Shown in pieces: positions 25,586 through 60,369 of a stretch of DNA of 64,000 bases. The notes beneath the pieces were generated by a model that did no database searches, had not been told where the DNA came from, and saw only the letters and a list, made by a program, of their open reading frames with translations. Both the position numbers and the translations under genes were made by a program. Numbering within the stretch: position 1 is the stretch's first letter; each line of letters opens with the position of its first letter. Source of the stretch: Tubiluchus corallicola (taxonomy: Eukaryota; Animalia; Priapulida); NCBI GenBank assembly GCA_030141605.1, contig JAQGDQ010000203.1:332565-396564 (forward strand), written 5' to 3'.

Positions 25586-26630
25586 TAGTTATTTATTTAT
25601 TCACTTGCTAGTACTATGCTGAAATTGATGGAGCAAAATTAGCCAGGATTTGTACTGAAATATGGTCGAGTAAAAGTACAGCGGCTAGCCGTCTCTGGCG
25701 TTGATTAATGCTCTTTCTCGCCTAGATCTCAATGGTCTTTGTTATTTCAGGTTCACACTGTAAATATTGGATGATCAGTCGAGTGGACAAGGGAAAATCC
25801 TTGACCGATCAATACGTGATTGCCAAACCTAATTGATATCGATTACGCTAATCGATGCTGTGACCGTAGTTGTGTTTGCATCTGCCGATGGCTGTTCCCA
25901 CTCAAGAAGACCTTCAGAAAAAGCGGAGCCCTTTTAGTGGGAAGCCCTTTTATTTATAATGAAGCGAGAAGAGCTGTACACGTTCTTGAAGAACCGCATT
26001 TCTTCGGGAAAAACCGAAACGTGATACAATGTAATGGTGCAAAAATAGAAACCTCTATAAACTCACAAGAAAACACGAGCCAACGCTGCGGCAGCTTAAT
26101 TAGTTTTATTGGTGCTAACTCACCTCATTGTGTTGGCGGTAGCGTGATGGATATGAGAGTACGCATGAACATTTTCACGCACCCACCACGGACATGTCGG
26201 TAGTGATTAACATCAGCTGTGCGGACGTAAGTGGTTTCAGTCCTTCGATGTTGACGTAATTAGCAATAACAGCTTCGTGCTAGATTAGATATTAGTGAGC
26301 TTAATCGAGGAAGGTCTACTAACACATGAGACTTGCTGCAGCCACTAATATACTAAAGACTTATTAGTTTATTATAGTGGCACTTGCGTAGTGAGAACGT
26401 AAATTTTTGTGTCTTTCTTTATGTTGCATGACATAGACAAGTCTGTGGTCACATTTGAAGGTAACAAGACTTGGCCCATTGGTTGACAAAATGCATGATA
26501 GTAGTGTAGTGCTAATCAACTACACACATTGATTCTAATGGCATTTAATTTTATTCTTGGTAAGCGCCTGGAATCTGTAGCTGAAGGATGCGTTGAACCA
26601 CGGTACGAAAAAGAAAAACGAGAAAAGAGC

Positions 26631-28034
26631 ATGGCAGCCGAGAAAAGGAGAGCAGCACAGGAGTGCCTTTTATTGGAGGAGGATGACAGCAGGGCAGATC
26701 CATCAAAATCCTCGCAGCAGTCAGACACAAACAGACAGAGCAGCGATCTGAACAAGAATGGCGTCATCTGTTCAGATCATCCTAACACACGCATAATGAT
26801 CAACATCAGTGGTTTAAGGTTCGAGACCCGGGTAAAGACGTTACGTCGGTACCCTGATTCTTTGTTGGGTAATCCAGCCAAACGTTGCAAGTACTTCGAC
26901 ACTTTGAGGAACGAGTATTATTTTGACCGACATCGACCTAGCTTTGATGCAATTCTCCATTATTACCAGAGTAAAGGGCGACTGCAGCGACCTGCCAATG
27001 TTCCTATGGACGTATTCATCAGTGAAATCAAATTTTTCCAATTAGGCGAGAAGGTGCTTGAGCAATACTTGGAAGGAGAAGGCATCGTGAAGGAGAAACC
27101 AAGAGCTTTACCAAAAAACCCCACTTTGAGGACAATCTGGAAATTGTTTGAGCACCCAGATGCCGGATGGCCATCACGTATTGTGGCAGTTATATCAATA
27201 TCAGTCATAGTGTTATCTGTGATCACATTCTGTGTGGAAACGTTACCAGAATTTTCTCAAAATAAAACTGTTTTGTTTCAAAATGCCACAAGAGATGAGA
27301 TTGGGGCCTTTCTTTTTAGCGATCCTTTCTTTGTCATTGAGACATTGTGTGTGTGCTGGTTTACATTTGAGTTAATCATGCGTTTTGTGTCGTCGCCAAA
27401 TAAATTTAAGTTCTGGAAAAGTTTTATGAATATTATAGATTTGACTGCCATCGTGCCATACTTCATAGGTCTATCAGTGACATACATCAACAAGTCTGGA
27501 GATATGGGATCGATGAGCTTAGCTGTACTCAGGGTTCTTCGTCTAGTCAGGGTGTTTAGAATATTTAAACTGTCACGACATTACAAAGGTTTGCAAGTCA
27601 TTGGTCAAACTTTACGAGCAAGTATTCCAGAATTAGGATTACTTACTTTCTTTCTCATCATTGGCATGATTCTTTTTGCTAGTGCTGTCTACTTTGCCGA
27701 ACTCGACAAAAGTGACTCTCACTTCACTAGTATTCCAGCCGCATTTTGGTGGGTGGTTGTCACCATGACCACAGTTGGATATGGTGACATGTTTCCACAA
27801 ACAGGTTGGGGAAAGTTGGTGGGATCTCTCTGTGTGATATCCGGTGTTCTGACAATAGCACTTCCTGTGCCTATCATTGTGTCAAATTTTGATTATTATT
27901 ACCACCGTCATTGTGACACTGAAGCTTATACGACAGAAGAGGAGGATCCTCAAGCTGATGGCGATATAGGTACCAGAATAGATTTGGAAGCAGCTGGTAG
28001 CAAAAATGATGATTACGATGAAACACATTGCTGA
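26631..28034 (+). CDS. KCNA: Voltage-gated potassium channel, Shaker/Kv1 (KCNA) subfamily alpha subunit, single coding exon
   Basis: T1 domain [10 protein letters not shown]...[32 protein letters not shown]; S4 [18 protein letters not shown]; pore TMTTVGYGD; S6 [10 protein letters not shown]. The start is taken as ATG 26631 (AGCATGG). An in-frame ATG at 26538 or an upstream exon is also possible. The specific paralogue cannot be assigned. Confidence 0.97.
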
Positions 28035-35629: not shown

Positions 35630-38400
35630 ATATTTATTAGTGTCAAAAATACATACAATGCAAGAAAAAACAAGGCATACATACAATTTCGATTTTGAAA
35701 TATACAAGAAAAAACAAGACACACATACAATTTCGATTTTGAAATATAATGATACTATATACAAACAAAACAATTACTAATAAAACAAATATTATTAAAT
35801 CTGCTTGTTAGTTGTATTAGTTACTTAAATGAAACGTTCAATGATTAGTATTTAAAATAAATTGTCATTCCTTAGGCCTCATTTTCAATGGTATGATTAT
35901 TACATAGTATATTGTTCTTCATGTCTTAAAAACGCTTTTTCAACATAATCAATAAATGCCTTAATTACTTCCAAATCATTACTTCTCATCAGGAATAAAA
36001 ATTTATCAGCATCGCTCATAAGGAAAAATTCTGGTATAATTACATTGATGCGATTATATAATTTCTTTCTAAAATCATTGTAATATGGGTTTTTATAACA
36101 AAGTGTAATTGGTCTTCGATTTCATTTCTTAAATAGTATGAGCGTATACCATTTCCAGCTGGGATTTTTCAAGGTTTAACGTACCTCCCTCTTTCAATAC
36201 ACAAAGTATGAGAGCTGATTCTCAGTTTTGTAAATTTTGTTATAGCATATTTGGAATAACCAGAAAGTAAATAGTTTCCTAGTTGATATTGTTTTTTGAA
36301 GGTACGATACGTTCGCAGTTTGTTTTGTCCATCAGGTTTGTTATTATTATGGATTTCTTCTTCCCAAAACAAAGTATAATCAGTTTTTATGAAGTAGTCG
36401 CTTAGGTGAAAACGTTGTCTGGTTATTCCACACGTGTTCAAAGCTAAATACACATAATGTATACTTAACAAAAGTAGTCCAACAAAAACAGCTAAGTTTC
36501 GGTTTTCGTTATAAGCAGTGGCGGATTGTATACTTAATTATTTTAATAAAAATGGGGGAAACGGCCACGTTCTGCCCTAGTCGCACATTTGCTTGATTTG
36601 TTATCGACATTCAAAAGAAATCTGCATAATTTAATATTGGCATCTTCGCTTGGCGCACTATCAAATTTAGTTTGAATAAGCGGAGAATTGGTTTTAATTT
36701 TAGTAATGCTAGGTCCCCATACACAAGAGCCATACAGCATGATAGGTACTACAGTATGTTCAAATAATTTGATAATAGTAAGTGGATTTGAGATGTACTT
36801 TTTCATGCAGTAAAAAGCTTTTAGGCATTTGTCTTTTAGTTTGGTGCAGCTTTGCCTGAAAGCACCGACCACTAAGTATTCAGAGGATTGGACTATTTTC
36901 AGCTTATCAGACCCATAGGTAAAGTTCAAGTCTTTTAGACTTCTACTTCTGCCTGCTTTGTTAAAAACAATAATTTCTGTCTTTTTAGTGTTAACTTCTA
37001 GAGCCCATTCGCTACAATAATTATTAAGCTTATTTAAGGCATTGTTGCAATCCTGACTGGGAACAAGAAAGTAAGACATATCATCTGCATAGAGAAGACA
37101 TTTGGTTTCAAAATTGCCTAGACTGACGGGATCGCATTCATTAGATGTGAAAACTGTTGGTAAGTCATTGATATACAAGGAAAAGAGAACTGAGCTCAAC
37201 GTACATCCTTGCTTAACACCTAAGGAGGATGCTATATCTATATACCGCCAGCGATTTTAACGGAGTAATTAGCTTTAGAGTAAATATTTTGCAGAATCTT
37301 AAGAAAATAACCACCTATATTATTTTATAGCAATTTATAGTACAATCCAATTCGCCAAACTGCGTCAAAGGCTTTGCGCAAATCAACGAAATAACAACAA
37401 AGTTTATGATTTGGTTTCAAAAATTTATCAATAAGTGTTTTTAATGTAAACATATGGTCACTGGTACGACAGCCTTTTTTAAATCCTATTTAAAATGCAG
37501 AATGTTATTATTAGGAATTTTCTAACCTGTTATTAAGAATGCTCGCAAATAATTTGCTTAAGCTGCTTGAAATGGCAATTCCGCTATAATTGTTTGGATC
37601 TGTTGCATTTCCACTTTTGTATATTGGGATGATGTGGCTTTGCTTCCACTGGGTAGGATAGCAGGAACCAGAAAAGACCAAATTTATTAATTTACGAAGA
37701 TAGGGAACCATAACTTCGCTTGAAGCATTTCCTTTATTAACCGTCTGTACCAGCAGTTTTGTTATTAAAACTGTTTAATGACAATCAGGATTTCCGTATC
37801 AGTCATTCTATAATCTAACTGAGAAAAAGAAGTGTAATTTTCTTCAATATACTCTGACAATTTTTTAGTTTTTCTCCAATGGCTGTCATTACTATTCAAT
37901 GAACTTCGAAAATGTTCTACCCAAACTATTGGGTCAATGTCATCGCCCTTGTTTAAGGTTTTTTTCTGGGTTCTGATTATCTTTCAAGTGTTTGATTAGG
38001 TTCCAAAAGACCTTCGGATTTTTAGTTTCCAGTTCAGTTAGTTGTTTCATAACACGGGCTTGATATTCCCTGTGTGCTTGCTGCTTGATCTTTTTATAAT
38101 ACCTCTGTTCTTTAAAGTACAGTTCTCGTAAGTTTCTATTATAAGGGGCGCTTTGCAATTTAAAATGCAAGTATTTTAGTCGGTTGTGGGCTGCTTTCCA
38201 TTGACTGTTAAACCATTTCTTATCTGGCCAGTGTTTTTGCTGGGCTACGCGTTTATTATTATTTAGAGTATTTCGTTCTTTAATTATCTTAGATGCAGCT
38301 ATAAAGCAAAATGGAATTAATGTTATTTACAGCCGCTTCAATCTCGTTCTCGTTTACATTATAATTAAAGCAATGTAGTATAGTGCATTAAGGCCTTTTT
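35630..38400 (-). mobile_element. Decayed 5'-truncated non-LTR retrotransposon (RT ORF2 remnant; RTE-X/L2-like, clade uncertain)
   Basis: Broken ORFs give PIYKSGNATDPNNYSGIAISS, GVKQGCTLSSVLF, LLYADD, W.LEVNTKKT and KLRTY...KLRISSHTLCIERGRY, with many stops and frameshifts. AATAAA lies at the 3' end near 35635. Confidence 0.9.
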
Positions 38401-39252: not shown

Positions 39253-40590
39253 ATGGCCTGTTCATCGTCCAAAGACTACTCCATAGATATGGCGGCAATA
39301 TGGAAAAGAGCAAACTGGTCTGAAAGATTGTCCAGCCTGTTTGATAGTGGTACGTTGCAAGACGTTGAGTTCATCGTAGGTGAAAAACGCATCACAATAA
39401 GAGCAAATAAACTCGTCTTGTCGTTGGTAAGTCGAGTATTTTTTACAATGTTTTATGGATCACTACCAGAGGTCACTAACACACCTATTGAAGTTCCAGA
39501 TATCAGAGTGAAAGTGTTCAACATTTTTCTCGAATTTGTTTATACCGACAGGATTCCCATAACTGATTGTAGTGTGTTATGTCATGATGGGGTTCCTTCA
39601 GCATTTGAACTAATTTATGTGGCCAAGAAATATGACGTGAGAAGGTTGGAAAGCATTGCGGCTAAGTACATTATGTCACATCTGACAGTTGATAATGTGT
39701 GTGATGTCATTAGAGAAAACTATTTGTACGAAAACCGGGACGTGCACGAACAGTGCTATCAACTAATTGATTTGTACCCGCTGGATGTGTTTACGTCTAA
39801 GAGTTTCACAAAGCTAGCCTACACAGAATTGCTGGAAATAGTTAAGAAAATAAACAACAAAATTTCTGAATTATCAATTTATGAATCAGTTGTTGGATGG
39901 GCGCGGGCTCAATGCGCCCGGAAAACACTGGCGACTTCTACTGGTAACATTCGCAACGAAATGAGCGACGTACTGTACGAAATTCGTTTTCCCTTGATGG
40001 ATCTGCAAGAGTTTGCGGATGGACCCGCTCAGTCCGGCATATTAACCGATAGTGAAGTAGCTAACATTTTCTTAAACAGGCATGGATCATTAAACAAAGT
40101 ACAGCTGATTTTTCCCGGAGAAAATAGGTGCGATTTTATGCTAAACTCACAAGACTTTAGGGGTAGGCCTACGCTTGTCTTTAGAGTGCCAGTACAGCAC
40201 ATTGATGGACTTCAACGCGGAAAAGGAAAGTGGTTTTCCTCTAAACCATGTTATCCTATTGCGGGAGTGTCCTGGGCGCTAGAACTTAGGAAGTGTGGCC
40301 CACTTACCTGTAATTCTGAGACTGAAAAAGGCCAAAGTTGTTGTTTTCATTTCCGGTTTGAACCCCATTGTGCAGCAGAAGAACGAAGAACTAGAACATT
40401 GTTCAGGGAATCCAGGATAGTGCTGGTGAATCTTGATCCACAAAAAAGCATCGAAAAAAAGCTGGCTGAGGACAAAACACCAGCTATTTGGTGGGAAGAC
40501 AACTTCATTTCGTCACGTGACTTGCTGACATTTGAAAGTGGCTTTATTATTGCTGACGTGATTACAGTTTACTTTATACCATGTGTTTAA
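39253..40590 (+). CDS. BTB/POZ-BACK protein with a C-terminal MATH/TRAF-like domain (putative Cullin-3 substrate adaptor), intronless
   Basis: BTB: DVEFIVGE...ANKLVLSLVSRVFFTMFYG...IEVPDI...FLEFVYTD...AKKYDV. BACK ends IRFPLMDLQEFADGPAQSGILTDSEVANIFL (BTBD1/2/3/6-like). C-terminus FSSKPCY.IAGVSWALELR...FIS..DLL...SGFIIADVITV is MATH-like. First ATG 39253; alternative 39289. Confidence 0.9.
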   Translation: MACSSSKDYSIDMAAIWKRANWSERLSSLFDSGTLQDVEFIVGEKRITIRANKLVLSLVSRVFFTMFYGSLPEVTNTPIEVPDIRVKVFNIFLEFVYTDRIPITDCSVLCHDGVPSAFELIYVAKKYDVRRLESIAAKYIMSHLTVDNVCDVIRENYLYENRDVHEQCYQLIDLYPLDVFTSKSFTKLAYTELLEIVKKINNKISELSIYESVVGWARAQCARKTLATSTGNIRNEMSDVLYEIRFPLMDLQEFADGPAQSGILTDSEVANIFLNRHGSLNKVQLIFPGENRCDFMLNSQDFRGRPTLVFRVPVQHIDGLQRGKGKWFSSKPCYPIAGVSWALELRKCGPLTCNSETEKGQSCCFHFRFEPHCAAEERRTRTLFRESRIVLVNLDPQKSIEKKLAEDKTPAIWWEDNFISSRDLLTFESGFIIADVITVYFIPCV

Positions 40591-41156: not shown

Positions 41157-41810
41157 AGCAGAATAAAGTTGGAAACAGGTGTTTTGCAGCACATTGATTC
41201 ATTGAATGAATATCTGCACCCTGACATAAAATACTGACTTTCAACACAGCCAATGTAATATCAGTTAGTATTCAATGACTTAAAGTTGATTTTTCTTGAC
41301 CTGTCCGTTAAGAAAAGCAAGCATATGACGGGTGCGGAAATTCATTCAACATATTACAAAAAAAGGGCCGATTCCACGTTTATTCAACATCAAGTTCCAT
41401 CGGTCTTTCAAAGTTAACCTAATATCGCGAAATTTCAACATAATTCAAAACGTGAATTGAAGCGATAACTAAATTTTGACTACCCTGTAGTTCCTTATAA
41501 TAAAATTTACTGCACAGTTTCATATCCAAAAGCATCTGTGTGATTACGTATCATTTAGATCAAGCAGGCAGCAGGTGTGTTTGTATAAGATTTTGTTTGA
41601 GATATCTTTGTTTACCATTGATGCAATAGAGTTGATGTATTTCAGTGTGTAAATAAATTTGATTGTCATCAAACTACATTGTGAAAAATCGATTTGAGCT
41701 GCAAATAAGTAGTTTTTGCAAATGAAAAAGCTACACAAATACAACAATTTCCCACTACGAAACTCATGTTGTAGTGTTCAGACGTGGAAACATCAGACAA
41801 TGTTCCTAAA

Positions 41811-42995
41811 ATGATACCAAGGAAAGTTCATGTCAGAGATATTGATGCAGCATTACACACTGGTTTAAAAAATCAGCAATCAGTTGATAAAGTCAAGAGA
41901 AATGCAAAAAGGTGGTTGCATCCGAAGGTATACACCATCCAGGAAATAGAAAATAAAAGTACAGTGAAACCTGGCGATAACAACTACTATCGTGATTGTT
42001 CAGTAACAAGCAATGAGTTGTATTACAAATTGCACCCACTTTTGAATTCTGCAAGGATTTTCGGTCTCTTTCACCTTCCGAAACATCGGCCCGAAAATGC
42101 TTCTCTGCTTGCCTCTTTTTCTGGAGCCACCTGGTGGTCGCTCGTGACACTGCTGTGTGTTACAGCAATATGTGCAAAGTCATTGAAATCTGACACTGGC
42201 AAAGCTGACCTGACGACAGCCACCGGCATTGCACAGTCGTTTGTCTTGTTCTTGGAGGTAATTCTGGTTTTGGTTAGATGGTTCACATTTGTTGCCGGAT
42301 TCAAAATGGCGAATGTTTTCTCAGAATTTGAGAAACAACTTCCTCGTTATATCAATCACAGTAAAGTTACTAACATCAAATCACTTACACAAACTCTCAG
42401 AGAAAATCGGCTTTCATGGGGATTAACCTTGATGGGCTGGGCGGTGATTATAAGTACTTTTTTGTATGCAACAATAAACAAGGTTTTCGAGAACCTGAAT
42501 TCAACTATAACTCTACGTTTGGTATTTATAAATACGGTTTATGTTATCTATGACAAGTTTCAGTTGGCAACTGTCATTTTTGCTGCATACATCGTCGTCT
42601 CGTTGTGCAAAATATTAAATTCTAAATTTAGTTTTCAACACGATGGCCTACGATTGGATACTGACGAAAAGGTGAATAATTTCTTGGACAAGCAAAGAGG
42701 ATTCATTCTTCTAATTGAAGTTGTGGATGAGACAATATCACCAATGCTTTTGATGATTTGTCTCGGAAGTTTCATGGTGATCGTTGTTCAAATTTATCTT
42801 TACAGCCATAATTATCACTCCGGTATTCCACCAGGTTATTTACAGGAATTTGTCCACGTGTTTTCTACTCTACAAAGTTTCTCATTCCTACTGATTCTTA
42901 TCAGCTGTACAGCTCTGCACGAAAAAGTCATGCAAGTTGAAAGAATTTTACATTCTATAAAACGAAGTCAATTGGGAGAAATGGCCAGATATGAG
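41811..42995 (+). CDS. GR/GRL 7TM chemoreceptor, variable exon V1 (N-terminus to TM6)
   Basis: Multi-TM ORF with L.PLL..A..FGLFH at TM1; paralogous to four neighbours. Ends MARYE followed by donor GAG|gtaaat (phase 0). First ATG 41811; the ORF track starts at GTG 41784. Confidence 0.85.
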
Positions 42996-44128
42996 GTAAA
43001 TACATGAAATAATTCTCAGACCTGGCACTCTTCATATGCTATGTAGATTTTTTTTATTTCAGGAAATATAAAGAATAAAAGCAAGCATGTAGTGATGGAA
43101 AGTTAAACAGCTTCTAAGAAAATAAAACAAATTAGAACTGTTTGGAAATTTGCAGCAAGAGTTAGTTGTACAAGTGTACAAGCCACTAGAGCTCTAACAA
43201 TAAGAAAACAAAGGTAACACCTTGCCAAAACACACTCGATGGCTTGAAACACTTTATACGTGAGTGAAGTGCAACAGATAAAAGAAAAATATATATTTTA
43301 CATTAACTGTTGTTCAAAACAATTCATGTGCAGGTATTATTGCCTAAAAGGATGATGTTCTTCTATTCTTAGCCCTTAGCAGTTCCAGTGTTGGAAATTT
43401 TTTTCAAGTTTCTTTCCAGGTCTTTGCATCCGAAAACTGATTACACGTTCAAACTAATAATTAGTTGTCTTTAATTAAGTTACTGCACACTTGATAATTA
43501 ATAATAAAACCATTGCCTCCATACTCAACCAAGATCAGTCTCTGAATCATGTGAGATGCAATTTAAAAACTTTAAGATAGAGTTAATTGCTTACAACAGA
43601 TGTAGAGACGATTGCTGCTTTAATCTGGTACTTTAAGTTAAAAAAGTAAGCGTCTTATATCCAACGCTTATCACATCTTGTTGATTCCTAATATTCCAAT
43701 GCCACCTTCCTGGTGGGTCAATAACTAGATATAGTTGCTGTGCTGCAAATATTAGCAGTGTGACCTGCTAATTTTATTCTATCTGTGAATTATTCCATCC
43801 ATTACATCACTGAGGCACTTATTGCAGTATGCTATTATTTAACAATAAACGCCAACAATAAATGTGTGCAAGGCTGTTATGCATTTGTCTAGCAAATGGT
43901 AAATAGATTGAAATTAAAAGCATTTGTGTTTACACTACTTTGTTCTGCACAACATTAGCAAGCAACAGAAAAACCACCTTATTTATAGCAAAAACAATTC
44001 AGGACTTTTAGATCACGTTCAGAATTATTGCAATCGAGAAGTACTCCTCGTATGCTAGTTCAAGAAAAGGAAATAAATATTACTCAAAGTTAAACAAGAC
44101 AGGTGTTTTCGATTTTTCTACAAATGAT

Positions 44129-45241
44129 ATGAAGAAATCTAAAGACGTTTCAAAGCAAGTTGTGAGTACCATAAGTTGCATAGCTTGGAAATCATGTGAT
44201 GACGATCCTTCAATGCCCATCAACCGTGAAATGGAAGAAAAGAATTTCACAGAAATTTTGATGATGAATGATATGTATAAAAGCTTAAAACCTTTGCTGC
44301 AATCTGCCAAAGTTTTTGGATTATTTCACGTACCAAATCAATACCAGGAGAGTTTTCGCATGCTGTCATATTTTTCTAGAAGCACCACTTGGTCGTTCAT
44401 TGTTTTTCTTGGTGTAGTGTCAATTTGCATAAAGTCTTTGGTTGCAGATGTACAACATGCTAACCTTACTACAGCCAGTGGTATTGCACAATCATTCGTC
44501 TTACTGTTGGAAGTAATTCTCACACTTGTGAGATTTTTTGCATTCATTGTTGGGTTCAAGATGAGAAAGGTGTTCATCGAGTTTGACAAGATGGCATGCA
44601 AGAGGAAATCATATTTTGCTAAATCTGATTCAACTACAACCAAAATTTCTGTAACTTTTATATCCTATTTCCTGGCAGTAATTGGATGGGTTACAATGAT
44701 TGTGACATTTGTTTATGCAGCAATTCATAAAGTAAAAGTTCATATCGGCAACGACAATAATACTATGGGCAACATAATTATATCAGCAGCATATCTCATT
44801 TACGACAAATTTCAACTCGCAGTGGTAATATTTCCTGCCTATATCACTACTTGTCTGTGTATCACCTTGATACAAAAATTTAAAAATGCAAAACTTGGTG
44901 AAACCACAGACCAGAATCTTCACGTCTTCTTAGAAAAGCAAACCAAATTCATTCATTTAATCAAAGTTATTGATGAGACAATGTCACCAATGCTTTTGAT
45001 GATTTGTTTCGGAAGCTTCATAGTGGTCGTTGTTCAAATTTATCTTTACAGCCATAATTATCACTGTGACATTCCACCAGGTTATCTACAGGAATTTGTC
45101 CACGTGTTTTCTACTCTGCAAAGTTTTTCATTCCTACTGATTCTTATCAGCTGCACAGCACTTCACGAAAAAGTCATGCAAGCTGAAAAAATTTTACATT
45201 CTATAAAGCGAAGTCAATTGGGAGAAATGGCCAGATATGAG
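44129..45241 (+). CDS. GR/GRL 7TM chemoreceptor, variable exon V2
   Basis: 371 codons from the ATG to MARYE, donor GAG|gtaatt (phase 0). Motifs LKPLLQSAKVFGLFH, GIAQSFV, YDKFQL and QIYLYSHNYH. Confidence 0.85.
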
Positions 45242-46893
45242 GTAATTACATTAAATAGTATCTTATGCTTATAAGGGACAGTTGTAGATGACGGAATGCT
45301 CAAAAAATCAAATCTCAAGTTCTGTTTTTGCTTGCTAATGGCATTCTAACAAAATATTATAAAGCACCTTTGCAAATACAGTTGCAATTATAAGACCATA
45401 ATAAAATAATTAACTGATCAAATGAATTAATAATTTACGTGTGAATGTTAAAATGTTACAAACTACAACAAAATTGCAAATGCAATGTTGCAAAGGCTAT
45501 AAAGGCTACAAAGGTAGTTTTACAGTCTATTGTTCTGCTGGATTCTGCATATAAACAGATTGAATCACTTGAGCATGTATGTATAGGCTAACAAATTTAA
45601 ATGTAAGCTTCATCCAAGGCTTGAAGGCCTGAAAGGTGGCTGCACATGACAGTATATCAGTTTATCCCCAACAATTATAGTTCTTTGTATTTTAGCCAGT
45701 GCAGTTCATTACACAAGTTGGGGTAATCCAGGTATGAAACTGTCTACACCATTGAGACTTTGCCAGTGGTGTAAATCGTGCCATCAGCTGCAAGTGAAAA
45801 CAGAGGCAATAAGCACATTTACCCGTGACATCACGTAGTGTCACCTTTAAACGCACAAGATTCTTGTACAGATTTTGTAACTTAAAATTAACATTTATTA
45901 TCACGTAAAGTAAAATTTTGCATTTTAGCACACTATATTTCTTTTATAAATTACTCCTAGAGTCACGTCTGAGGACTTCACGTATTTGAAATTGAAAAAT
46001 TACAAAATCGTGTTTATCTTATTTGCAGTTAACTGTGCAAGGTCTGTGAAGACCTTTTTATTGCTAATTTGAAAGAATATGCTTTCGCTCATTGAATCAT
46101 AAATGTTGACAATGCGTTTGTTTGCCGCTCCTCATATTTTTGCTATGGACGTCTCCGAATGCCTAATGTTTGCTTATAAACTCTGCTTTTAACAGAGGCT
46201 TGTTATCTCACTAGTTTTTACCAAAAATTGTTTCCTGTCAACTACAGTTTTACTTGCTTCAAGAAGGTCGACCTATCACTACCAAGTTATTAATAAAAAA
46301 AATTTCTCGCCCTGTTTTTAAACCTGTTTTTTACTGTGGGAATGCCTCAGCATATTACCATAATTCAACGCTGTCAGTTCTTTAGAACTTCTGTCTTTCA
46401 GATTTTATGACATTTCTGACTTAAAAAATGACGAAGAACATGGACATTCAATCGCACACACACATTGTGCATTGCGCCAAAAAAAATTAAAGGGGCAAAT
46501 GCTTTTTTTAATGATTTATTGGCTCTTTGTGTTGCCAACTGATCTATGTTCATCCAGCAGAGGATTAGTGTTGCCTAGTTCAGCTTTAACTCATCCACCA
46601 TAGAAGCCGAGAATAATCGATTAATACGTTCACAAGACTTTGAGTTTTTTCTTAGTTATAGTTTTAGCTGGTAATGAAATACTATTTTTTGAGACATGTC
46701 GAGGACAATCGTGTGAAAGTAACTTCTACAAAGCTCACAACTATTTAAGTATAGTCTTTTTTAATCTGAGTTCAGGGACTATTAGCGATCACCCTGACGA
46801 TTATAAAATTAGTCATGGTAATATGAACACATAATTAATTAGTTAATTAAATTTCGATACCAAACTTGCAAGACAGGCGTGTAAAATATTAGA

Positions 46894-46966
46894 AATACTG
46901 TCTGTATTTGAACCACTGCCCTTCTGCTTACAAGGCAGATGCTTCAGATCAATAAGCTACTTTATT
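46894..46966 (-). pseudogene. Degenerate tRNA-Thr(UGU)-like sequence (tRNA pseudogene or SINE head)
   Basis: Minus strand: aataaag-TAGCTTATTGA...TCTGC-CTTGTAA-GCAGA (perfect anticodon stem, anticodon TGT)...GGTTCAAAT...cagtatt. The acceptor stem pairs 5/7 and the T stem is broken. Confidence 0.7.
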
Positions 46967-47540
46967 ACTCAGCGAAAAGTTTTAACATTTCCTGTCTATA
47001 AACTTTGGTATCAAAATTTAGTTATATGTGTTTTTGTAATATCTTTCATAACAATCTTGACATTACGATTATAATAATTAAAAGTGGTCTTGTTTACTCA
47101 AAACAAAGGCACAGTTAATAAACTTGGTACAACCAAAACAGGTTTAACTGCGAAGGTATAATAGTAGAAAGTACAATTTTAGTGTTTTTCATTCATGCAA
47201 TAATAATTTCTAAAATGAATGCCTTTTTATAATGAATGCTCATTATATAAGTCAGTTTCTTTTTTGACTTCGATCATGGTGTATAGCGTAGGAATTCTAA
47301 AGGAGAGAAGAAATCGCTGCAATTATGGGCAAACTGACTATTTACCCAATTATAAATGTATCAAAAGAAAATGTTCTCCAATGTTTCTTTGTTTGGCATG
47401 CAGCACTCAACCACATTTCCTTTGGCTATTGTGATCTGTTAATGCATCAGCTTGAGGCTTCTACGAAGGAACCTAGGTCACCAGAGTGCTTCAAACACTT
47501 ATACTTGAACGAAGTGATGTTTTTGTTAAATTGTTTCATA

Positions 47541-48677
47541 ATGGGCACCAGAATACCTTCTGCTCCAACAAATACTTTTAAGAACTCAGTAATAAAAAGT
47601 CCAACGAAATGGACACCAATTCAGACAATGGTTGGTGATGGAAAGCTTGCAAATAACGTGATTTCAGAGTCTGGCGACTTCATATTGTTGGACACAGTGA
47701 GTTTTTATAAAAGCTTGCATCCACTTCTAACGTTAGCTAAAGTATTTGGCCTATTTCACATTCCAAGTAGAAAAAACACGCAAAGGAGATTCCAAGCTCT
47801 TCTATGTGGCAGTACGACGTGGTCATTAGCAATGGCTGTTGGAGTCACAATAGTGTGTACCTACGACTTAATTACGGACTTGAGAGCTGCAGACTTGATT
47901 ACTCCAGCTGGTATAGCACAATCATTTGTACTTTTTCTCGAGGTTGTGAATACTATCATTAGATGGTTTGCTTTTGTTTCAGCTTTTAAAGTGACCAAGT
48001 TGTTTTCCAAGTTTGAGTGTACTACAGAAAACAGTGCCGAACGGACAAAACTACTTAGGCTCAAATTGTTTAAACGAGAGCTAAAAGACAGCACTGTCAG
48101 CTGGACATTAGCCTTTGTAGGATGGATTGCGATGAGCTGCACATTTTTAAACGCTTTAGTAGAGAAAGTGAAATATATCTACGAAGATACATCCATTAGG
48201 AGTTGCGTTTTAAATATCGTATTTTTATTCTACGATAAATTACAACTTTCCACGATCATGTTTCCAGCCTTTATTATAGTTGGTGTTTGTTGCACTCTGC
48301 TCTCCTACTTTGAAACTCAAAAGGAACCCCCGAAAGTCAATACCGATAAAAATGTGTTAAGTTATCTGAAGGGACAGTCAGCAATTATAGAAGTTATTGA
48401 AGTCATCGATGCAGCTATATCACCCTCGCTTTTCATGATTTGTTTCGTGAGTTTCATGGTAACTGGATTGCAAGTATATCTCTACAGTCACAACTATCAC
48501 TTTGGTGTACCAAAAGGTTTTATGCAAGAGTTTATATTCGTCTATTCTACTCTGCAAACTGTCTCGTTCTTATTAATTCTGATCGGCTGCACAGCTGTGC
48601 ATGAAAAGATTTTGCAAGCGGAAAGAGCGTTACGCAAAGTTGAACTTTATCAACTGGGTGACGTGGCACGCTATGAG
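47541..48677 (+). CDS. GR/GRL 7TM chemoreceptor, variable exon V3
   Basis: Ends VARYE, donor GAG|gtataa (phase 0). The start is set at ATG 47541 by length comparison with paralogues; the ORF is open back to 47325. Confidence 0.85.
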
Positions 48678-48745
48678 GTATAATATTGGGCCTATACCAA
48701 ATTAATTCTTTTTTTAAGGCATGTCGCCTCTGAAGTGAGGAAAAT

Positions 48746-49056
<311 letters not shown>

Positions 49057-50165
49057 AATTCTTTATTGCTATAAAATTTAGTAGTTTACTACCCATTCAA
49101 AAATTGACAGCATAACCAGTGTTTCCACTGCTGTGAGTATTAGTGTCAGGATAAAATAAAATTATGAGTAAAAACATGAGTGAAGCTATGATCATTACAT
49201 CGATTGCACAAAAGTCTACATTCATTTGACACGGTTCAGCGAGTACTTAACACAATTTACAATATTTGCAAGTAATAGTTTTGTCTAAGATATTAAAATT
49301 GTGTAAATATGAAATTGCATGAGTGGTTTTGATTTTTTTTGAGTTGGTGACACTACAAGTTGAATGTTGATAATAATAAAAAGGTGTGATTTGATATTTT
49401 GTATTAGGTCTTTTTGATGGCTAGCATGTTTTTAGTTCATTTTTGAATCCTTTTAGCGTCACTGCAGATTTTACATTAAATAGCTGAATACTCTTGCTTT
49501 TGTGTTAGTAACGGAAACAACACAGTAAAATTAAATAAAGCAAAAATAAAACAAAGCAAGAATAAAGCTCAGCGAAACAAAGCATAGACATAAAATATTA
49601 CAGCTTCTGAAACACACTGAGACTTGTAAAATCTGCATGTTACGATCAAAATAGAGTTTTGAAAATAATTTGTGTTGCCACTACTCAATGTTTAACGCCT
49701 TCATGCCGATTTTTATTTAGAATAATAGGTAAACAAGCAGAATGAAGCGAAGTATAAAATACACGACAATGTTTAGAGCGGCAAAATAATGTAAAATGGT
49801 CAGAAAAAAGAAAAAAATGCGACATGAAACAATAGTTATAACGAGGCAGCAGTACAATAATCATTATCGTTTATTAATATTATGACGACCAAATACTTAG
49901 CGCCAGTTTATCGATGAACATCACGTTTGTCAAACTGCTTGCCTTTGAATATTAATAAAATTAGGATGCAAATGCAGCTAAGAATTCAAGTTTATTGCAG
50001 CAAAATGTTTATGTTCACGGGTAAAGTCATTGGGTGAACGTAATTATCCGATGAGATTGAAAATGACGATGATGGTGGTGATAATGATTGTGATTGTTAC
50101 TCTGGTAATGACGAAAATGATAGTGATGGTGATAAATGAGAGCCATAATTGAATTGCTTTTGCAG

Positions 50166-50255
50166 GTACTTATTCATCTCCAACAACTATCATCAAGATC
50201 TATTGGCCTCACAATCTGGAAATTCTACGTCATCAATCGAAACTTTGCTTTTATC
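50166..50255 (+). CDS. GR/GRL shared (constant) exon C1, 90 nt: VLIHLQQLSSRSIGLTIWKFYVINRNFAFI
   Basis: Acceptor ttgcttttgcag|GTA and donor ATC|gtgagt, phase 0 on both sides. The peptide matches the GR pattern of the IL3/TM7a region (F..QL......T..G.F.I.R). Confidence 0.85.
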
Positions 50256-50377
50256 GTGAGTTCAGTTTGTTGCTATTTTGGAAATATAGCTTCGCCCAGT
50301 TTAATTTTTAAAGTGGAGATTAGATTTTTGATCTTTTCACTGATGAACTCAATAAACAGTTTTGTAACGTGAGGCGA

Positions 50378-50456
50378 GTTGAGTAGCGGAGTGGTCATGG
50401 CATGCGTTTGTCAGTGAATGGCTCGTAAGTGCCCGGGTTTGATGCTCCCTGAGGGA
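50378..50456 (+). mobile_element. tRNA-derived SINE head in the intron between the constant exons
   Basis: A-box-like TAGCGGAGTGG and B-box-like GGGTTTGATGC with long (Leu/Ser-type) spacing. Confidence 0.5.
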
Positions 50457-50883
50457 AATTTCATTCGCCATGCTAATTTCTTGTTGCGCATATTATACCC
50501 ATCTTCCGTACATATACATATATATGAATGTGATTAAAACAGCTCTACCAGCTCAGTGGTTCATCTTAATGGCTATTCATGATAACGAGTTTGGCATTGA
50601 TCTCCCCAAAAAACAGTGGACCTATTATTAAGAGCTGGATTTTGGGTTGCAATACATTTGCAATGTATTTTATAAAGATTAAAAATAAAAACGTGCTTTA
50701 CCTAAAGCACCTTCATCACAAAACAAATTCATATTTTGCTTTGAGTTCTTGTTGTCAAATAAACTCTTGAATAAAAGTTACCAAGCTAGTTTGTTACTAT
50801 TGCATGATAAATTTATAACTGTTATAACGTTTATAACTGTTGTTGAGTTGCTTAGTTTAACAATAAATGTTGTTGTTTTGCAG

Positions 50884-51045
50884 ATTGTCAGTGGTATCTG
50901 CACGTTTTTCATCGTGATAGTACAATTTCATCAGACAATTATTGGAAAGCAACAGACAAACGTGACACTCCTTATGGACGCCTTTGCCAATGAAGCTTGT
51001 CATATCTGCAGACGATTTCTCAACAACCTTAGTGATCCTGATTAG
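50884..51045 (+). CDS. GR/GRL shared terminal exon C2 (TM7b and C-terminal tail): IVSGICTFFIVIVQFHQ...LSDPD*
   Basis: Acceptor tgttgttgttttgcag|ATT, phase 0. TFFIVIVQF fits the GR superfamily TM7 signature TYhhhhhQF. Stop TAG at 51043-51045. Confidence 0.87.
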   Translation: MVSGICTFFIVIVQFHQTIIGKQQTNVTLLMDAFANEACHICRRFLNNLSDPD

Positions 51046-52800
51046 AAGCTTCGAGCTTGTCAACTTGCTGCTATAGCTTGACAAAACGCATCTAACTATG
51101 GTGCAAATTCTGCAAATTAAACAATATATGTCACTTTAATATTAACCGAGCAACAAAACGAAGAAAAATGAGATTTTTCTAAGCCCAGGGACAGATTGTA
51201 TATTTTTATCCACTCATATAAGAATGTGTAGGTTTTTTACCTACTCATTTTGCTAATTTGAAATTTGAACCTAATATTCAGACGCATAAGCTTTAGCCAA
51301 ACAAAGACAGCAGAGTTTTATGTTGTGTGTTGTTTTTTATATAAAAATTTATTTCTTTTTTTGAATAATTCAGAAGGACCGAATTTTAGGGTTAAATTAA
51401 AATATCAGTAGGTGGACTACTCTTACCCTGACTGGTATCAAATTGGTATATGGCTAGTGTTTTAAGTAAACTGCATTCTTATTTTTTTTTTATAAAATTC
51501 CATGCATTGCAAGCCAAAATCCAACTTTTAAAAGCAGGTTCATTGTTTTTATGGCGAGAATCACAGCTCAATTCATTACCTGTACTTTTGATAACATTTA
51601 AATTACACTTAATCAAACTACGGTTCTCTTGTTTAAGAATAATCTGAGGATGCGTTCGAAAGCTTTTACATGGAAATTGAGAAACAAGAAGCGAGTTGCT
51701 GTTTTAACTTGCCTATATTCTTGCCTCTACTGAATTGTTATTACCACTTTAGAACTTTAAAAATTTATAGTTTTCAGAATGTTTAGTGTATGTAAAATGA
51801 ATGTATGTATGTATGAATTATTTACGTAAGCCTTCCTTTTACTTATTTGAACTGAATCGAAACTAAAATTTGTAGTGATTTAAAACTTCTTGATTTGATA
51901 GCAAATATCGTATTATGACTATTAGCAGAACGCAGTAGAAATAGCTCGTTTCTATCAGCTCCGGTATCTAAAGTCAAATTAACAATGTTCATATTGTTAG
52001 TGCTACTAATCTTTATTAACACTTATGTTTATTATAATTACATATTTCTTTAGAGAACACGTCTTTGTGCGTTGTGATGTGCACATAACAAATAAAAGTC
52101 CGTTTCTGTATTTGTGGCAGTAGCTGCATTATTGTATTTTGAGTGTGCAGTGGCGATAATGGCATCTCTGTCGAGCAATGCCGAAACGTGCCGATTTATG
52201 ACTAATCAAGTGAATAAGTCTTTAAAATTACGTCTTCATTGGCTTTTAAGCTAACATTAAGCTTTCCAAATCTAAATCACCCATTATTAGAGTCCCTGTA
52301 TATTTAAATATATAGTTGTAAATATATAGTAATTCTATCCATTATTACAGTATGCTGCTATCTTCTGGTGGGAAAAACGCAAAAACAAGACAGGCTAGGG
52401 GATGAAAATAACAGATGACAGAATGAGAATGGCCATTTCGTTTTTGTTGTAAACCGTGACATTTACAAGATTGACATGCTCAAACAAATATGATCACGCA
52501 TAGGCAAATCACATTTATTACATTAAAACGTGCCTGTAATTGTTTGCGATGAATAAACGGTAGCTCGCGTGGATGTCATTGACAATTTAGCTTAATGTTG
52601 GTGTTGGAAATACTTGATTGCTCCTTCTTTCTGGCTAAAGCTGTGAGTTAAACTAAACGTTGTGTCTTCTAATTAATACCGCAGGAACTCATACGACTTA
52701 GACAACTTCATTTGTAGCTACCGAAAAAGTTATCTAGACGTGTTTAGTCATCTTGCTTCGCTAGAAGTGACCTGTTGGTGACACAGTTTTTAAATCCAAA

Positions 52801-53901
52801 ATGAAAGCACATCATAACACATGGACCATCGGACTGACTGGTTCACTTAAAGTCACGAAGGAGCACGTTAAAACACTATCTCCTAGAAAACTCAATACAG
52901 GTTCCCATAATGATTCCAACTGCCAATTTTACCAGAAATTACGTCCACTATTGATTTTTGCCACAATTTTTGGCTTGTTTCACATGCCTAACAGAAAGAC
53001 GCAGAAACGGTTTGGGTTGGTGGTATTGTCCTACAGTACCATGTGGTCTTTGACTATTCAGATTTTCGTCACAGTTCCAACTATATGGTCCCTTATGCGT
53101 GATACCAGTAAAATTGATCTCACAGCAGCAGAAGGAATTGCCCGGTTATTTGTCATGTTTATGGAAGTAACACTCACATGTATAAGATGGTTGGTATTCT
53201 TTGCTGGATTTAAACTGGTAGATGTCTTAGCAGAATGCAGAGAAGTCAGCAAAATTCAATATCCAAATATGCTGGTTACAGTCATCTCTGGGAAACAGAA
53301 GTACTTGGAGAAAGGAATATCATGGATATTTGCCACGTTAGGAGGGATCATAATTGTCTTTTCGATTATTACAGAATCTCACACTTTGTGGAAGCGGTTT
53401 AAAAGCGGAGAAGAAGAAATTTCATTTCTGCCGATTCTGATTATGTATTTGGTTTCTGACAAGCTGCTGTTGGCAACTGTGATGTTTCCTGCTTATATTA
53501 TAACTTGCTTTTCCTACGTGCTAATATCCCATCAAAGATCATTTCAGAAAACAGAAGAAAATCTTTCAGCTGAAGAAGTCATGTTGTTTTTGAAAAGACA
53601 TTCAAAGTACATTCGCGTTGTCAAGGTCATAGACAACGCTATATCTTCTACACTGCTGATGATCTGTCTGGCAAGTTTTATGGTAGTTGTAGTACAAATT
53701 TATCTTTTCAGTCACAATTTCTATGCTAACATTTCCCACGGATATCTGCAACAATATTTGTATGTCTACTCTACCATGCAGTCTGTGTCATTTCTGCTGA
53801 TTCTTGTTAGCTGTACAGCAGTACATGAAAGCGTTATGGAGGCTGAAAATAAGTTACATGCGTTGAACAAAGAGAGCCTGGGGGAGACAGCACGTTATGA
53901 G
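52801..53901 (+). CDS. GR/GRL 7TM chemoreceptor, variable exon V4 (second array)
   Basis: 367 codons from the ATG to TARYE, donor GAG|gtaaat (phase 0). Motifs LRPLLIFATIFGLFH and QIYLFSHNF. No terminal exons found downstream in the window. Confidence 0.85.
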
Positions 53902-55919
53902 GTAAATTTATTGTATTGCATTTGTCTATCAGCAATATTTCACTAATTTCTGTTTTAAATCACTCATGTTTTGTGTGTAGGTTTGTATGTATTTATATAT
54001 TCTCTCCATTATCTATCGTAGTTTTTCGTACTTAGTATTTCTTTGTGTTGTCTTACAAAGAGATGATCTTGCTTACATGATTGCCTCCTGTTCTGAAAGT
54101 AGGGTGGGAGTTTAGCAGCCAAAACCTGAAATTGCTCAAAATATGGATTCCTCCATGGTGACCTTATTTTTGTGTTGGTTTTAGTATTGTTTTTTGTTGA
54201 ATTCTTTTATTCAGATAATAATGCAACACAGCTATCTTGTTGACTTTCATCATTTACACGAAATTTGATGATTATAATCAATTCCAAGCGATAAAGCGGC
54301 TAATGTGGAATTGTACTGTCTAGACATCCTATACCGCAGATCTTCTATTAATTAAATCAAAGCTGATTAAGATTAAATTATTTTTCATTATTGGTCTGCA
54401 GGGTGTAATTAGATTTCACGAAATCTGATCTTGATAAAATCTTTCCGAAATTTTAGTAACTCAGTAAACCGACTCACGTTCTAACTCCTTATTTTAACAG
54501 CTGCAAGAAAACAACAGAAAATAAACACTAGAGGCATTTACCTTTACCAACCCAACTATGAGAAAAATCGCGAATTTCGGATAGTATCTGCTACATAGGC
54601 CCCTGGGTCTATTTGCTCTTAAACCCAAAACATTGAGATCGAATGTTGTACAAGCCAACCGAGGCTATACAACCATAAGTCGTGCTTTAATATGGTGTGC
54701 GGTAAAACCGCACAAGTAAAAATGACACAAGAAAAAAACATGGTAAAAGTGGCACAGGAAAAATGGCACAAATGGAAATCGCACAATTGAAAATGGCATA
54801 TATGTTATTTTGATGCAATTAATTTCTATAAAAAAAACTAGAATGCGCCCAGTAGGAAGCAAATCTCTGCCAAAGGCGAACAATCCTAAACTTATTCGTC
54901 TGATTCCTTTGATTAAAAAAATTTACCCCAAAGATAAACCAAGCAAACATACAAAAATACACCTGTATTGGTATTATATAGACTAGACTCACAAAATATT
55001 TGTTCATTAAACAGATTTATAATCAATAATGCACGAATGTCCCACATACAATTTGAACTAGCCTTCTACACGTATTTTTTCTTCCTTATTGTTTCTTTTT
55101 ATGCATTTTGAATCATGTATTGGTAGTATTGCTGCTGGCACTGCTACCTCTTGTGCTCCAAAAATGTTATAGTCCCAAGTTATTTTTAGTATGCTTTATG
55201 ACTGCCATATAATAATCGTTTTGTTACTTTGTTGTAACACGACAATTAGACTAATACTTTGAGTGACAGATATGAAATTAAATGTGTTGTAGCACAAAGG
55301 GTCAGCAAACAAGAACGTTATCAGCAAATTGGCAAATAACCCGATAGCATGCAGGACAACTTATTGTAACTACAAAGGACAATTATGCTGTGGTGTCTGT
55401 TTGTAGCAGTTGTTTTGAATTGCGATTGTGTTTTGCAACAATATACGATGATGTAAAATAGCCTGTCTCATCAAAAACGCGATAAAGCATTTCTAAAACT
55501 CAATGTAATGAAACAAGAAGTCAAGTTATAATTATTTTGTGCGGACTTCAAGGTTTCCATTGTGATTTGGCCAGTTTAAAAGAAACACCTACCTAATCAG
55601 TCAGAGACGATCATTGGCAAAATTTAGCAATTATTAAAAAGCTTGCTTGCCACTGTCCAGCTTAAGTAAGTTTATGTGTTGACTGTCCTACATTATGTGG
55701 TTCTGTGACACTTGACATTTCTGTTGTTCCATTTAACAAATTGAGCCATAAAAACTGCAGTCTTTTAATCCCGGTCATATTACCAACACCAATTGTATAA
55801 GTACCAAATTTATTGGCAAATAAGCCAATTAAGGAAGCACATAGATTTCTAATATGAACGTGTCTTACTAGTAGCCAAATATAGATCAAGCTCCATTTTG
55901 TCGTCTGAAGATAAGTAAA

Positions 55920-57047
55920 ATGGAGAAGTCTCGTGATGCAAGGTCCGTTGACTTGGACAATAATCCTAAACATCTAAAGCAAGAAGAGGAGATAAACACT
56001 GAGTCACCTCCCACAAGTGGCAATAACTTCAATGTTATTTTTGAAACTGGTTTGTATCAGCAACTAAGGCCACTGTTGACAAGCGCAATGTTTTTTGGTC
56101 TCTTTCATATTCCTAACTGCAGAAAGAAAAATGCACTATTTGGACTTGTATTGTTGTGCTCTCGTAGCACCATTTGGTCATTAATTAATCTGATCTTTGT
56201 CACTTCAACAACTGTGCTCTTGTTTCTGATTGATTATGAGGATATTGAGACAGTGATACTCACAACGCCAACAGGAATTGCAAAAATGTTTGTCATTTTA
56301 ATGCAGGCAACATTATCTTTGATAAGATGGCTGATCTTCTTTGCTGGTCTCAGAATGGCACACATTATGGAAAAATCATATGAGGTTCAAGAAGCAGAAA
56401 AAATCTATTCTTCTCTTATTCCTACAAAAAAGAACAAGAAGAAAAATTTCGAGAAAAGAATGGTATGGAGCCTGACTGTATTTGGATGGATTGTTATTTT
56501 TTACTCGTCTGTCAAGGAAGTTTTTGTTTTCTGTGAGATATTTGTGGAAGATCTGGAAAAGGGAGCCATTTTTGACATTGTGGCGATAATCATACTTTTC
56601 CTGTATGACAAATTTCTGTTGGCAACCGTCATGTTTCCCGCATTTACCATAACGAGTTTATCTTTTATATTAAAGACTAATCAAAATTTGGCACTGAAAA
56701 TGGAAAATCTCTCAGATGAAGAGATTATGTTATTTTTGAAAAGGCAAACGAAGTATGTTCATCTGGTCAAGGCCATAGACAACGTCATATCTCCGACATT
56801 GTTGATGATCTGTCTGGCAAGTTTTATGGTAGTTGTGGTACAAATTTATCTTTTCAGTCACAATTTCTATTCTGGCATTCCCCCAGGTCATCTGCAGCAA
56901 TATTTGTATGTCTACTCTACCATGCAGTCTGTATCATTTCTGATGATTCTGGTTAGCTGTACAGCAGTACATGAAAGCGTTATGGAGGCTGAAACAAAGT
57001 TACATGAGTTGAATAAAGAAAGTCTGGGGGACACAGTACGTTATGAA
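55920..57047 (+). CDS. GR/GRL 7TM chemoreceptor, variable exon V5 (second array)
   Basis: 376 codons from the ATG to TVRYE, donor GAA|gtaagt (phase 0); closest to V4. Confidence 0.85.
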
Positions 57048-57399
57048 GTAAGTTTTTATCATTACCTTGCTGAAGACATTTATAAATGTCCCTCTTGTTT
57101 ACAAGTATGAAGACGATAGTCTAAATGGTAGATTATCTTAAAGAAACGGCCCCAAATGATGGTAATCGTGAACAGAAAGATGTTTTCTTAAAAATGTTTA
57201 TTTATTTTTCACATTATGCGTGCAATCCAACAGTAACAAAACAAAATTCATGCTTGTGAAGCAGCAGTGAGCTAAGGTAATTACGAAAATGTATGAAGAA
57301 ATATCAAGATTAGCAAAGAAAATAAGCAAACAGATTGATTAAACTGTCATATTCCAAATTACTCAAAACAAGCGTTCTAGAGTTATCGAAAGTCAGCAC

Positions 57400-57700
57400 C
57401 AACGAGGTGCATCAGTGGCTTTGTATGAAATGCACAATAGTTAAATGTTTAGAAATTTTGATAGTGTACCACGTGAACACCCAGAATCTCCCATTCTCCC
57501 AGGAAGCTTTAAAAATTCCCCCACGTACATCAGTTTTGGACCACATAAGCAACGCTATACAGCAACTAAATAATAATAACTTCAGCATAGACGTGTTACG
57601 TGATGACACCAGCAAAGGTGTTGATATATATTTTTGAGCTGATCGTTTTGCCCAACTGCTACAATGTGTTAAATTGTTAGGGTACTCTAAACTTGCTGAA
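57400..57700 (+). mobile_element. Highly decayed LINE reverse transcriptase fragment
   Basis: KCLEILIVYHVNTQNL...LDHI...SIDVLRDDTSKGVD resembles RT blocks K.LE.II...HL..NNL and VD.I.LDFSKAFD. Confidence 0.4.
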
Positions 57701-60365: not shown

Positions 60366-60369
60366 TTTT

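Follow-up and report, generated by a model that had tools for sequence, protein, structure and literature searches.

A gustatory receptor-like locus with a predicted shared pair of C-terminal exons in the priapulid Tubiluchus corallicola

A chemoreceptor locus in the priapulid Tubiluchus corallicola probably makes several receptors by splicing three long, variable first coding exons (V1, V2 and V3) to one shared pair of short constant exons (C1 and C2). The locus lies in a 64,000-nucleotide stretch of genomic DNA (NCBI GenBank assembly GCA_030141605.1, contig JAQGDQ010000203.1, positions 332,565 to 396,564), which was analysed as a whole and is called the window below; position 1 is its first letter. 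An initial annotation of the window had proposed this arrangement, and its coordinates for V1, V2, V3, C1 and C2 proved exact in all five cases. It had counted three V exons: V1–V3 are indeed intact, but the window holds five, since two more (V4 and V5) lie downstream of C2.

Exon structure and family membership

The exons are as follows, a slash marking the splice border. Helices are labelled S0 to S7 in our own numbering.

41811..42995, forward strand: V1, variable first coding exon, 395 aa, predicted helices S0–S6; donor GAG/GTAAAT, phase 0
44129..45241, forward strand: V2, variable first coding exon, 371 aa; donor GAG/GTAATT
47541..48677, forward strand: V3, variable first coding exon, 379 aa; donor GAG/GTATAA
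50166..50255, forward strand: C1, constant exon, 90 bp, phase 0/0, predicted S7a
50884..51045, forward strand: C2, terminal constant exon, predicted S7b/pore; TFFIVIVQF from codon 7
51116..51121, forward strand: ATTAAA, candidate poly(A) signal 3' of C2
52801..53901, forward strand: V4, intact V-type exon, 367 aa; donor GAG/GTAAAT; C exons not found in the window
55920..57047, forward strand: V5, intact V-type exon, 376 aa; donor GAA/GTAAGT; C exons not found in the 6.95 kb that follow

V1, V2 and V3 are each open from their ATG over 1185, 1113 and 1137 nt, and a phase-0 donor directly follows R-Y-E in all five V exons, bearing out the equivalent R-Y-E/GT ends described earlier for V1–V3. Past the donors the frames read through into mutually unrelated tails of 1–20 aa. 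An A or G stands at position −3 ahead of every V ATG, which fits true starts and is uninformative on promoters. C1 is bordered by a strong acceptor (ttttgcag/) and a GTGAGT donor (/gtgagt), and C2, behind a ttttgcag/ acceptor of its own, measures 162 nt (53 codons and a stop). When V, C1 and C2 were joined in a script, the products reached 478 (V1), 454 (V2) and 462 aa (V3) with no internal stop, confirming that the two phase-0 C exons complete V1–V3 in frame and that C2 supplies TFFIVIVQF. In the joined products, the last hydrophobic segment straddles the C1/C2 join.

Four lines of evidence support assignment of the locus to the gustatory receptor/gustatory receptor-like (GR/GRL) family, as the initial annotation had suggested, and channel activity is predicted. 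(i) In a search with the Pfam 7tm_7 model, two of the five V exons scored above the gathering cutoff of 26.6 (V2, 35.1 bits; V5, 29.4 bits), and both of these, the two tested, fell at 0.95–0.96 beside 7tm_7 clusters in Atlas. V1, V3 and V4 are tied to the family through one alignment, in which V exons are 38–55% identical to V1. (ii) The motif of the seventh transmembrane helix (TM7), (T/S)Yhhhhh(Q/K/E)(F/L/M), is matched by TFFIVIVQF in C2 with F in place of Y, a change counted as conservative and seen in SpurGRL1; the last residue of the motif sits in the gate of Orco (PMC7746228; here and below, papers are cited from the passages of each that were available). (iii) The intron before C2 lies six codons ahead of the TM7 motif, which begins at codon 7 right after the AG. 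This position of the 3' phase-0 intron is conserved in the family (PMC2680840), a conserved 3' phase-0 intron is described in GRLs (PMC5850775), and a 90-bp penultimate exon between phase-0 introns is a family rule (PMC13388675), to which C1 conforms with 90 nt and phase 0/0. By sequence, C1 and C2 occupy the two conserved 3' intron positions of GR/GRL genes. (iv) The predicted fold of V1 resembles insect GR and odorant receptor (OR) channels.

The fold searches used a model of V1 alone (S0–S6, without S7) rather than the spliced protein. With this model, the top 14 rows of a Foldseek search were insect GRs or ORs (best E 8.5e-4, Gr43a), and the top 8 rows in VIA were all insect GRs or ORs with Z 16.4–19.5, the next row having Z 8.2; the best root-mean-square deviation in VIA was 4.4 over 301 aligned residues. 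The comparison to GR and Orco structures that had been proposed thus agrees with the family assignment for V1 without C1 and C2. Among solved insect channels, BmGr9 (8vc1), DmGr43a (8jm9), Gr64a (8jme), AgamOR28 (8v3d) and MhOR5 (7lic) fold like V1 residues 68–395 (Z 17.9–19.5), at 7–14% identity to V1, the likeness being that of the model lacking S7. The alignment with AgamOR28 stops at residue 354 of a 396-residue chain, and the remainder is roughly the length that C1 and the start of C2 would supply. By helix count on the V1 model, V is predicted to span S0–S6 and to end ahead of the TM7 region.

Sequence searches returned no relatives of the V exons: none among 1805 candidates, none detectable among 1.84 billion representatives with a profile of all five V exons, and none held up among 311 pattern matches in metagenome contigs. 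The V profile, C2 and C1 had no match among PDB sequences, and exact look-up of seven window translations in a sequence collection returned none. Since no V-exon relative was detectable among the 1.84 billion representatives, the array likely expanded within its own lineage.

Some features of C2 and its flanks deserve mention. Behind the TM7 motif (within 50929–51042), C2 encodes a tail of 38 aa that includes two N-glycosylation sequons and one CxxC, features fitting an extracellular C terminus that would be common to all predicted isoforms. An element of ~110 nt flanks C2 as an inverted pair (50601–50710 and 51457–51559, 74% alike), which may influence how C2 is spliced or be no more than a repeat. 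The V3–C1 intron carries a compound (AAT)n/(AGT)n/(AAG)n microsatellite at 48745–49050.

Single-copy end exons, constraint and gene conversion

Do the V exons have end exons of their own? We collected phase-0 exon candidates of 60–150 nt, scored them against C1, and compared the best scores with that of an upstream control region (12, from 291 candidates). The best candidate scored 13 in the V1–V2 spacer (20 candidates), 3 in the V2–V3 spacer (35), 14 in the V4–V5 spacer (37) and 15 in the sequence 3' of V5 (154). With nhmmer, C1 matched only itself in the window, and C2 matched itself and one further site at E 8.4. The TM7 motif occurs four times in the six frames of the 64 kb, and an AG six codons before it is present only at C2. 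By these searches, the spacers contain no usable private C exon, and C1 and C2 are single-copy within the window. The earlier statement that nothing in the V1–V2 and V2–V3 spacers resembles the missing C terminus therefore stands for usable exons: neither candidate scoring nor nhmmer returned one in 42996–44128 or 45242–47540, the intervals where private copies would have told against sharing, and one dead C2-like stretch at 43751 is borderline. No C1 relic in the V1–V2 spacer reached significance.

Three candidate C1-like sequences were rejected. A heavily gapped match in the V2–V3 spacer was significant in one of three gap settings. A C1-like score at 51546, upstream of V4, was 27 with a next best of 26 among 127,701 positions, and the site overlaps a repeat. 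A 44-aa hydrophobic frame from 53981, considered as a private terminal exon of V4, scored 14 against C1 (control, 12) and has no TM7 motif.

All five V frames are open, and the synonymous sites of the V1 and V2 cores are saturated (proportion of synonymous differences, pS, 0.73). Nonsynonymous and synonymous divergence (dN/dS) amounted to 0.036/0.195 in the V1/V2 tail; for V4/V5 the core gave 0.45/1.49 and the tail 0.069/0.252. When neutral drift was simulated at 0.1 substitutions per site, four tested frames stayed open in 2–6 of 1000 runs (V1 in 2), and at 0.25 substitutions per site no run of 1000 was stop-free. On this evidence, the V exons are under purifying selection, now or until recently. 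Because the V exons are constrained and a subunit without S7 would lack a pore, the simplest assumption is that they are spliced to the only C exons available. Splicing of V1, V2 and V3 alike to the shared C1/C2 pair is thus, in our judgement, probable.

How would such a locus work? Each V exon would have its own promoter; a transcript starting at one V would skip the V exons downstream and join C1 and then C2, as modelled for insect Gr39a-type loci. The outcome would be three predicted ion-channel subunits with different S0–S6 parts and a common TM7 pore part. Isoform-specific promoters are known from fly Gr loci. In the 700 nt upstream of the five V ATGs, no 8-mer and four 7-mers were common to four of five (null means 1.4 and 11), a comparison that a degenerate or more distant shared element would escape.

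Neighbouring V exons are not independent of each other at their 3' ends, as shown by two homogenised tracts.

42720..42995, forward strand: V1 3' tract homogenised with V2 44966–45241, from V1 residue 304
56766..57047, forward strand: V5 3' tract homogenised with V4 53620–53901

Each covers ~280 nt, and the V1/V2 tract takes in most of S5, all of S6 and ~18 nt of the intron. Codons for the same amino acid were identical between V1 and V2 in 48 of 114 cases before V1 residue 304 and in 71 of 79 after it; for V4 and V5, the counts were 56 of 101 before the breakpoint and 66 of 77 after it. No permutation gave an equally sharp change in either pair (0/500 each), and among the other eight V pairs such changes arose in 10/500 permutations for V1/V3 and in 69–409/500 for the remaining seven. 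Since pS in the V1/V3 tail is 0.60, the tail is not merely constrained at silent sites. The last ~280 nt of neighbouring V exons were likely exchanged by gene conversion. Such conversion would leave the differences between V1 and V2 to S0–S4 and the start of S5. The proposal of different ligand modules on an identical pore is accordingly kept for the shared TM7 exons, as predicted here, and was overstated for the modules: V1 and V2 are nearly identical in S5–S6, which narrows "different pocket, same pore" to a difference mainly in S0–S4 and the start of S5. V1 and V2 form a natural pair (S5–S7 alike, S0–S4 different) with which the helices that determine ligand choice could readily be identified.

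The same tract drew attention in contigs of a DNA-like sequencing run (X1), which may be the source of the window itself and whose contigs cross the spacers with no joints listed and leave 5 of 30 bins uncovered. One X1 contig (44785–45569) carries the upstream part of V2, agrees with V1 at all 13 positions that distinguish the two exons in the final 176 nt, and continues into the V2 intron; the V1-type tail on V2 reflects either a segregating conversion or chimeric contig assembly. A repeated element at 46840–47081 in the V2–V3 spacer shows high depth and many loose ends in X1, and 20 nt of it match, in inverted orientation, the sequence 5' of V1.

Competing readings

Several observations weigh against shared use of C1 and C2. 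The V-to-C1 splice junctions are predicted from sequence; V1, V3, V4, C1 and C2 have no Pfam 7tm_7 match of their own; the V1 model has a middling confidence (predicted local distance difference test, 63.6), and the models of the other four V exons fall under 50. V4 and V5 are intact V exons without visible C exons in the window. Two features behind V1 add to this.

43040..43079, forward strand: strong acceptor-like site by an ad hoc score, AG at 43061–43062, AATAAA at 43074–43079
43722..43824, forward strand: possible decayed C2 copy, no AG, in-frame stop at codon 7; borderline

On our ad hoc, untrained acceptor scale, the site at 43062 scored 14 (C1, 11.8; C2, 12.8), a value reached by none of 5000 random 81-nt stretches, and further acceptor-like sites lie 41 nt past the V3 donor (11.9) and at 46028 (12.6). 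The 43062 site, the strongest of its region, sits 67 nt past the V1 donor; its use would add E-I-stop beside the AATAAA and would yield a pore-less V1. The stretch at 43722–43824 resembles the acceptor and first codons of C2, with the site at 43751 and 27 of 51 bases identical. Its score was reached by none of 300 control stretches in any of three gap settings; at 43751 the gapped score was reached in four of 2000 shuffles and in one of the 110 other tiles, and the ungapped region-level p was 0.08 for protein and 0.16 for DNA. The likeness may be due to chance, since the search covered eight regions with two queries. Lacking an AG and having a stop at codon 7, the stretch cannot serve as an exon; if real, it would mean that V1 once had private end exons.

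Could the V exons instead all follow one upstream leader, spliced in cis or in trans, as internal exons of which each transcript takes a single one, and still share C1 and C2? Acceptor-like sites within 400 nt upstream of four of the five V ATGs would fit this arrangement. However, four of five is the background rate (1.1 per 400 nt), in a weak test whose threshold missed both true acceptors, and on the ad hoc scale neither the 811 nt ahead of V1 nor the 1755 nt ahead of V4 contains a site as strong as that of C1. We regard a common leader as unlikely.

Slightly less likely again is that V1 is a former complete gene whose private C exons were lost and which is now mostly spliced to 43062, with a pore-less protein of 397 aa or a dead transcript as the outcome, so that only V2 and V3, or V3 alone, use C1/C2. 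The acceptor-like site with its adjoining stop and AATAAA speaks for this, as does the borderline relic in the V1–V2 spacer. Yet V1 is intact and constrained despite the saturated divergence of its core, and the relic, if real, decayed to 27 of 51 identical bases while the V1 frame was kept, which argues for continued use of V1. Furthermore, the acceptor scale is untrained, the V1–V2 spacer lacks a significant C1 relic, and none of the other four V donors has an equally strong proximal acceptor.

That the assembly dropped or collapsed private C exons, with V1, V2 and V3 being ordinary tandem genes, is very improbable: near-identical V1/V2 tails are hard to assemble, the X1 contig over V2 carries the V1-type letters described above, and the listed X1 pieces leave parts of the spacers unbridged, but the window contains no N, X1 contigs are collinear over most of the V1–V2 spacer (43056–43797 and 43935–44161) and run from V2 into the V2–V3 spacer without a joint, and the loss would have to have happened three times (V1, V2 and V4). 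Contigs of a second run (X2), taken as RNA only by guess, do not cover 41500–48740 and give no evidence on expression.

V4 and V5 lie on the same strand as V1–V3, have the equivalent donor position and stand 3' of C2; a search with the five-exon profile returned no sixth V exon, intact or decayed, in the window. No C-like exon for them was found in 53902–55919 or 57048–64000. In a tree of the unconverted cores, V1, V2 and V3 form one group and V4 and V5 another (100/99), a split that corresponds to their positions on either side of C1/C2; an initial duplication of an entire V+C unit would produce such a clade of V4 and V5. Of the 6.95 kb 3' of V5, about 3.8 kb is of the long interspersed nuclear element (LINE) type, so an ordinary long intron fits, V1 to C1 itself spanning 7.2 kb. 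V4 and V5 likely begin a second V+C unit whose C exons lie beyond the window, although they may also be orphans. Against this, one could imagine that V4 and V5 lack C exons of their own and reach the upstream C1/C2 by trans-splicing, as their intact, constrained frames and the C-less intervals around them would allow; the LINE-type sequence behind V5 and the separate clade make this a far-fetched reading. Correspondingly, there is little chance that all five V exons use one C1/C2 pair, V1–V3 in cis and V4/V5 in trans, which would be a non-collinear chemoreceptor locus in a priapulid.

Comparison with known loci and neighbouring genes

The initial annotation had raised the prospect of an undescribed diversification system. 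This does not hold, since the layout is frequent in insect Gr and Or genes (PMC13388675, PMC6175461). In the cockroach, 26 Gr genes have shared exons, with up to 13 receptors per locus and commonly with RNA support (PMC6175461). In Drosophila Gr39a, gain, loss and selection of alternative large exons are described, and the copies of exon A are very recent and/or converted (PMC2204066). The priapulid locus resembles Gr39a (also Gr23a and Gr28b) and Blattella germanica Gr60a-m (13 receptors) in its tandem long first exons and common short phase-0 C-terminal exons (PMC2204066, PMC6175461). As at Gr39a/Gr28b-type loci, it has tandem long first exons with equivalent donors, one C set with none private (with the caveats of 43062 and 43751), and purifying selection; the available passages on insect Gr loci describe mutually exclusive exon use and purifying selection on the large exons, the latter seen in the V exons too.

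Several differences set the locus apart. Two exons are shared rather than three, the insect 69–72-bp exon lying here inside V (PMC13388675). It accordingly departs from the structure of the insect "bitter GR supergroup" (three phase-0 introns, a separate 69–72-bp second exon), V being open up to the 90-bp exon and the introns numbering two; the first of three ancestral introns is absent, hence two shared exons instead of three. Daphnia Gr53 likewise lacks the first intron (PMC2680840). Unlike the insect loci, the present one belongs to a priapulid rather than an arthropod, with no sequence relative found; conversion affects two exon pairs and is limited in each to a sharply bounded 3' tract, and C2 has its 38-aa post-motif tail.

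With non-arthropod GRLs (Nematostella, Trichoplax, sea urchin; gur, lite-1 and egl-47 of C. elegans), the locus shares the TM7 motif and the conserved 3' phase-0 intron, its Y-to-F change being that of SpurGRL1. Published counts of these GRLs are small (Trichoplax, 3; Nematostella, 4), in contrast to five V exons within 15 kb here. C. elegans egl-47 has two isoforms, which would lower the novelty of the priapulid case if they follow the shared-exon layout. Vertebrate protocadherin and UGT1 loci also place variable first exons on constant 3' exons, with gene conversion among the variable exons; they are not homologous to the V/C locus, and the comparison is one of how it may work.

The literature searched, most subscription papers and the main GRL surveys being outside its scope, contained no priapulid GRL in the passages available: the word "gustatory" does not occur in PMC10280001, and the passages of PMC11682238 mention no priapulid GRL. 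The literature listings searched, supplements excluded, gave no case of the shared-exon layout outside arthropods, and the centipede passages covered do not mention alternatively spliced Grs. The novelty thus likely lies in the phylum: an insect-type shared-exon GRL locus, likely described for the first time in priapulids, of a system itself known. Should the predicted splicing be correct, an early-branching ecdysozoan phylum would share with insects this means of multiplying taste receptors, and this would support the idea that an ancestral structure of a long exon with short phase-0 exons makes this layout arise repeatedly. It also suggests that counts of non-arthropod GRLs may be too low, automatic annotation and sequence search overlooking such loci.

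Among the neighbouring genes, one is a voltage-gated potassium channel of the Kv1/Shaker type.

26538..28031, forward strand: intronless Kv1/Shaker gene

Its product shares 66% identity, across 90% of its length, with a channel of Priapulus caudatus, named non-priapulid matches reaching at most 62%. It groups with the P. caudatus protein and P0005 at 100/100 in a 15-row tree, which omits 26 of 41 rows including P0006 and other long ones; a quick tree of all 41 rows, which carries a long-branch warning, joins it to both P. caudatus paralogues. Of seven motifs chosen after the alignment had been viewed, five are confined, among 120 matches, to the two P. caudatus paralogues and P0005, and the other two occur also in one and two more proteins. 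The gene represents a divergent subfamily, met here only in it, the two P. caudatus paralogues and P0005, whose changed residues follow S4 and S6 and lie in the pore turret. By this one gene, the DNA likely comes from a priapulid other than P. caudatus or from another scalidophoran. The initial annotation had taken the intronless Shaker gene as a weak hint of a non-insect host; that direction was right, the evidence being the sequence of the gene. An intronless BTB-BACK gene (39256–40587) gave three matches at 31–34% and no clade signal. In the 98 other open reading frames of the window, above-cutoff matches were restricted to reverse transcriptase, endonuclease and HTH_psq domains. LINE-type fragments lie on the minus strand at 36169–38326, 58337–58756 and 60593–64000, the last running off the window; reverse transcriptase and endonuclease domains were confirmed in 36546–37256 and 61293–64000. 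A transposase-like fragment containing HTH_psq occupies 24898–25439, also on the minus strand.

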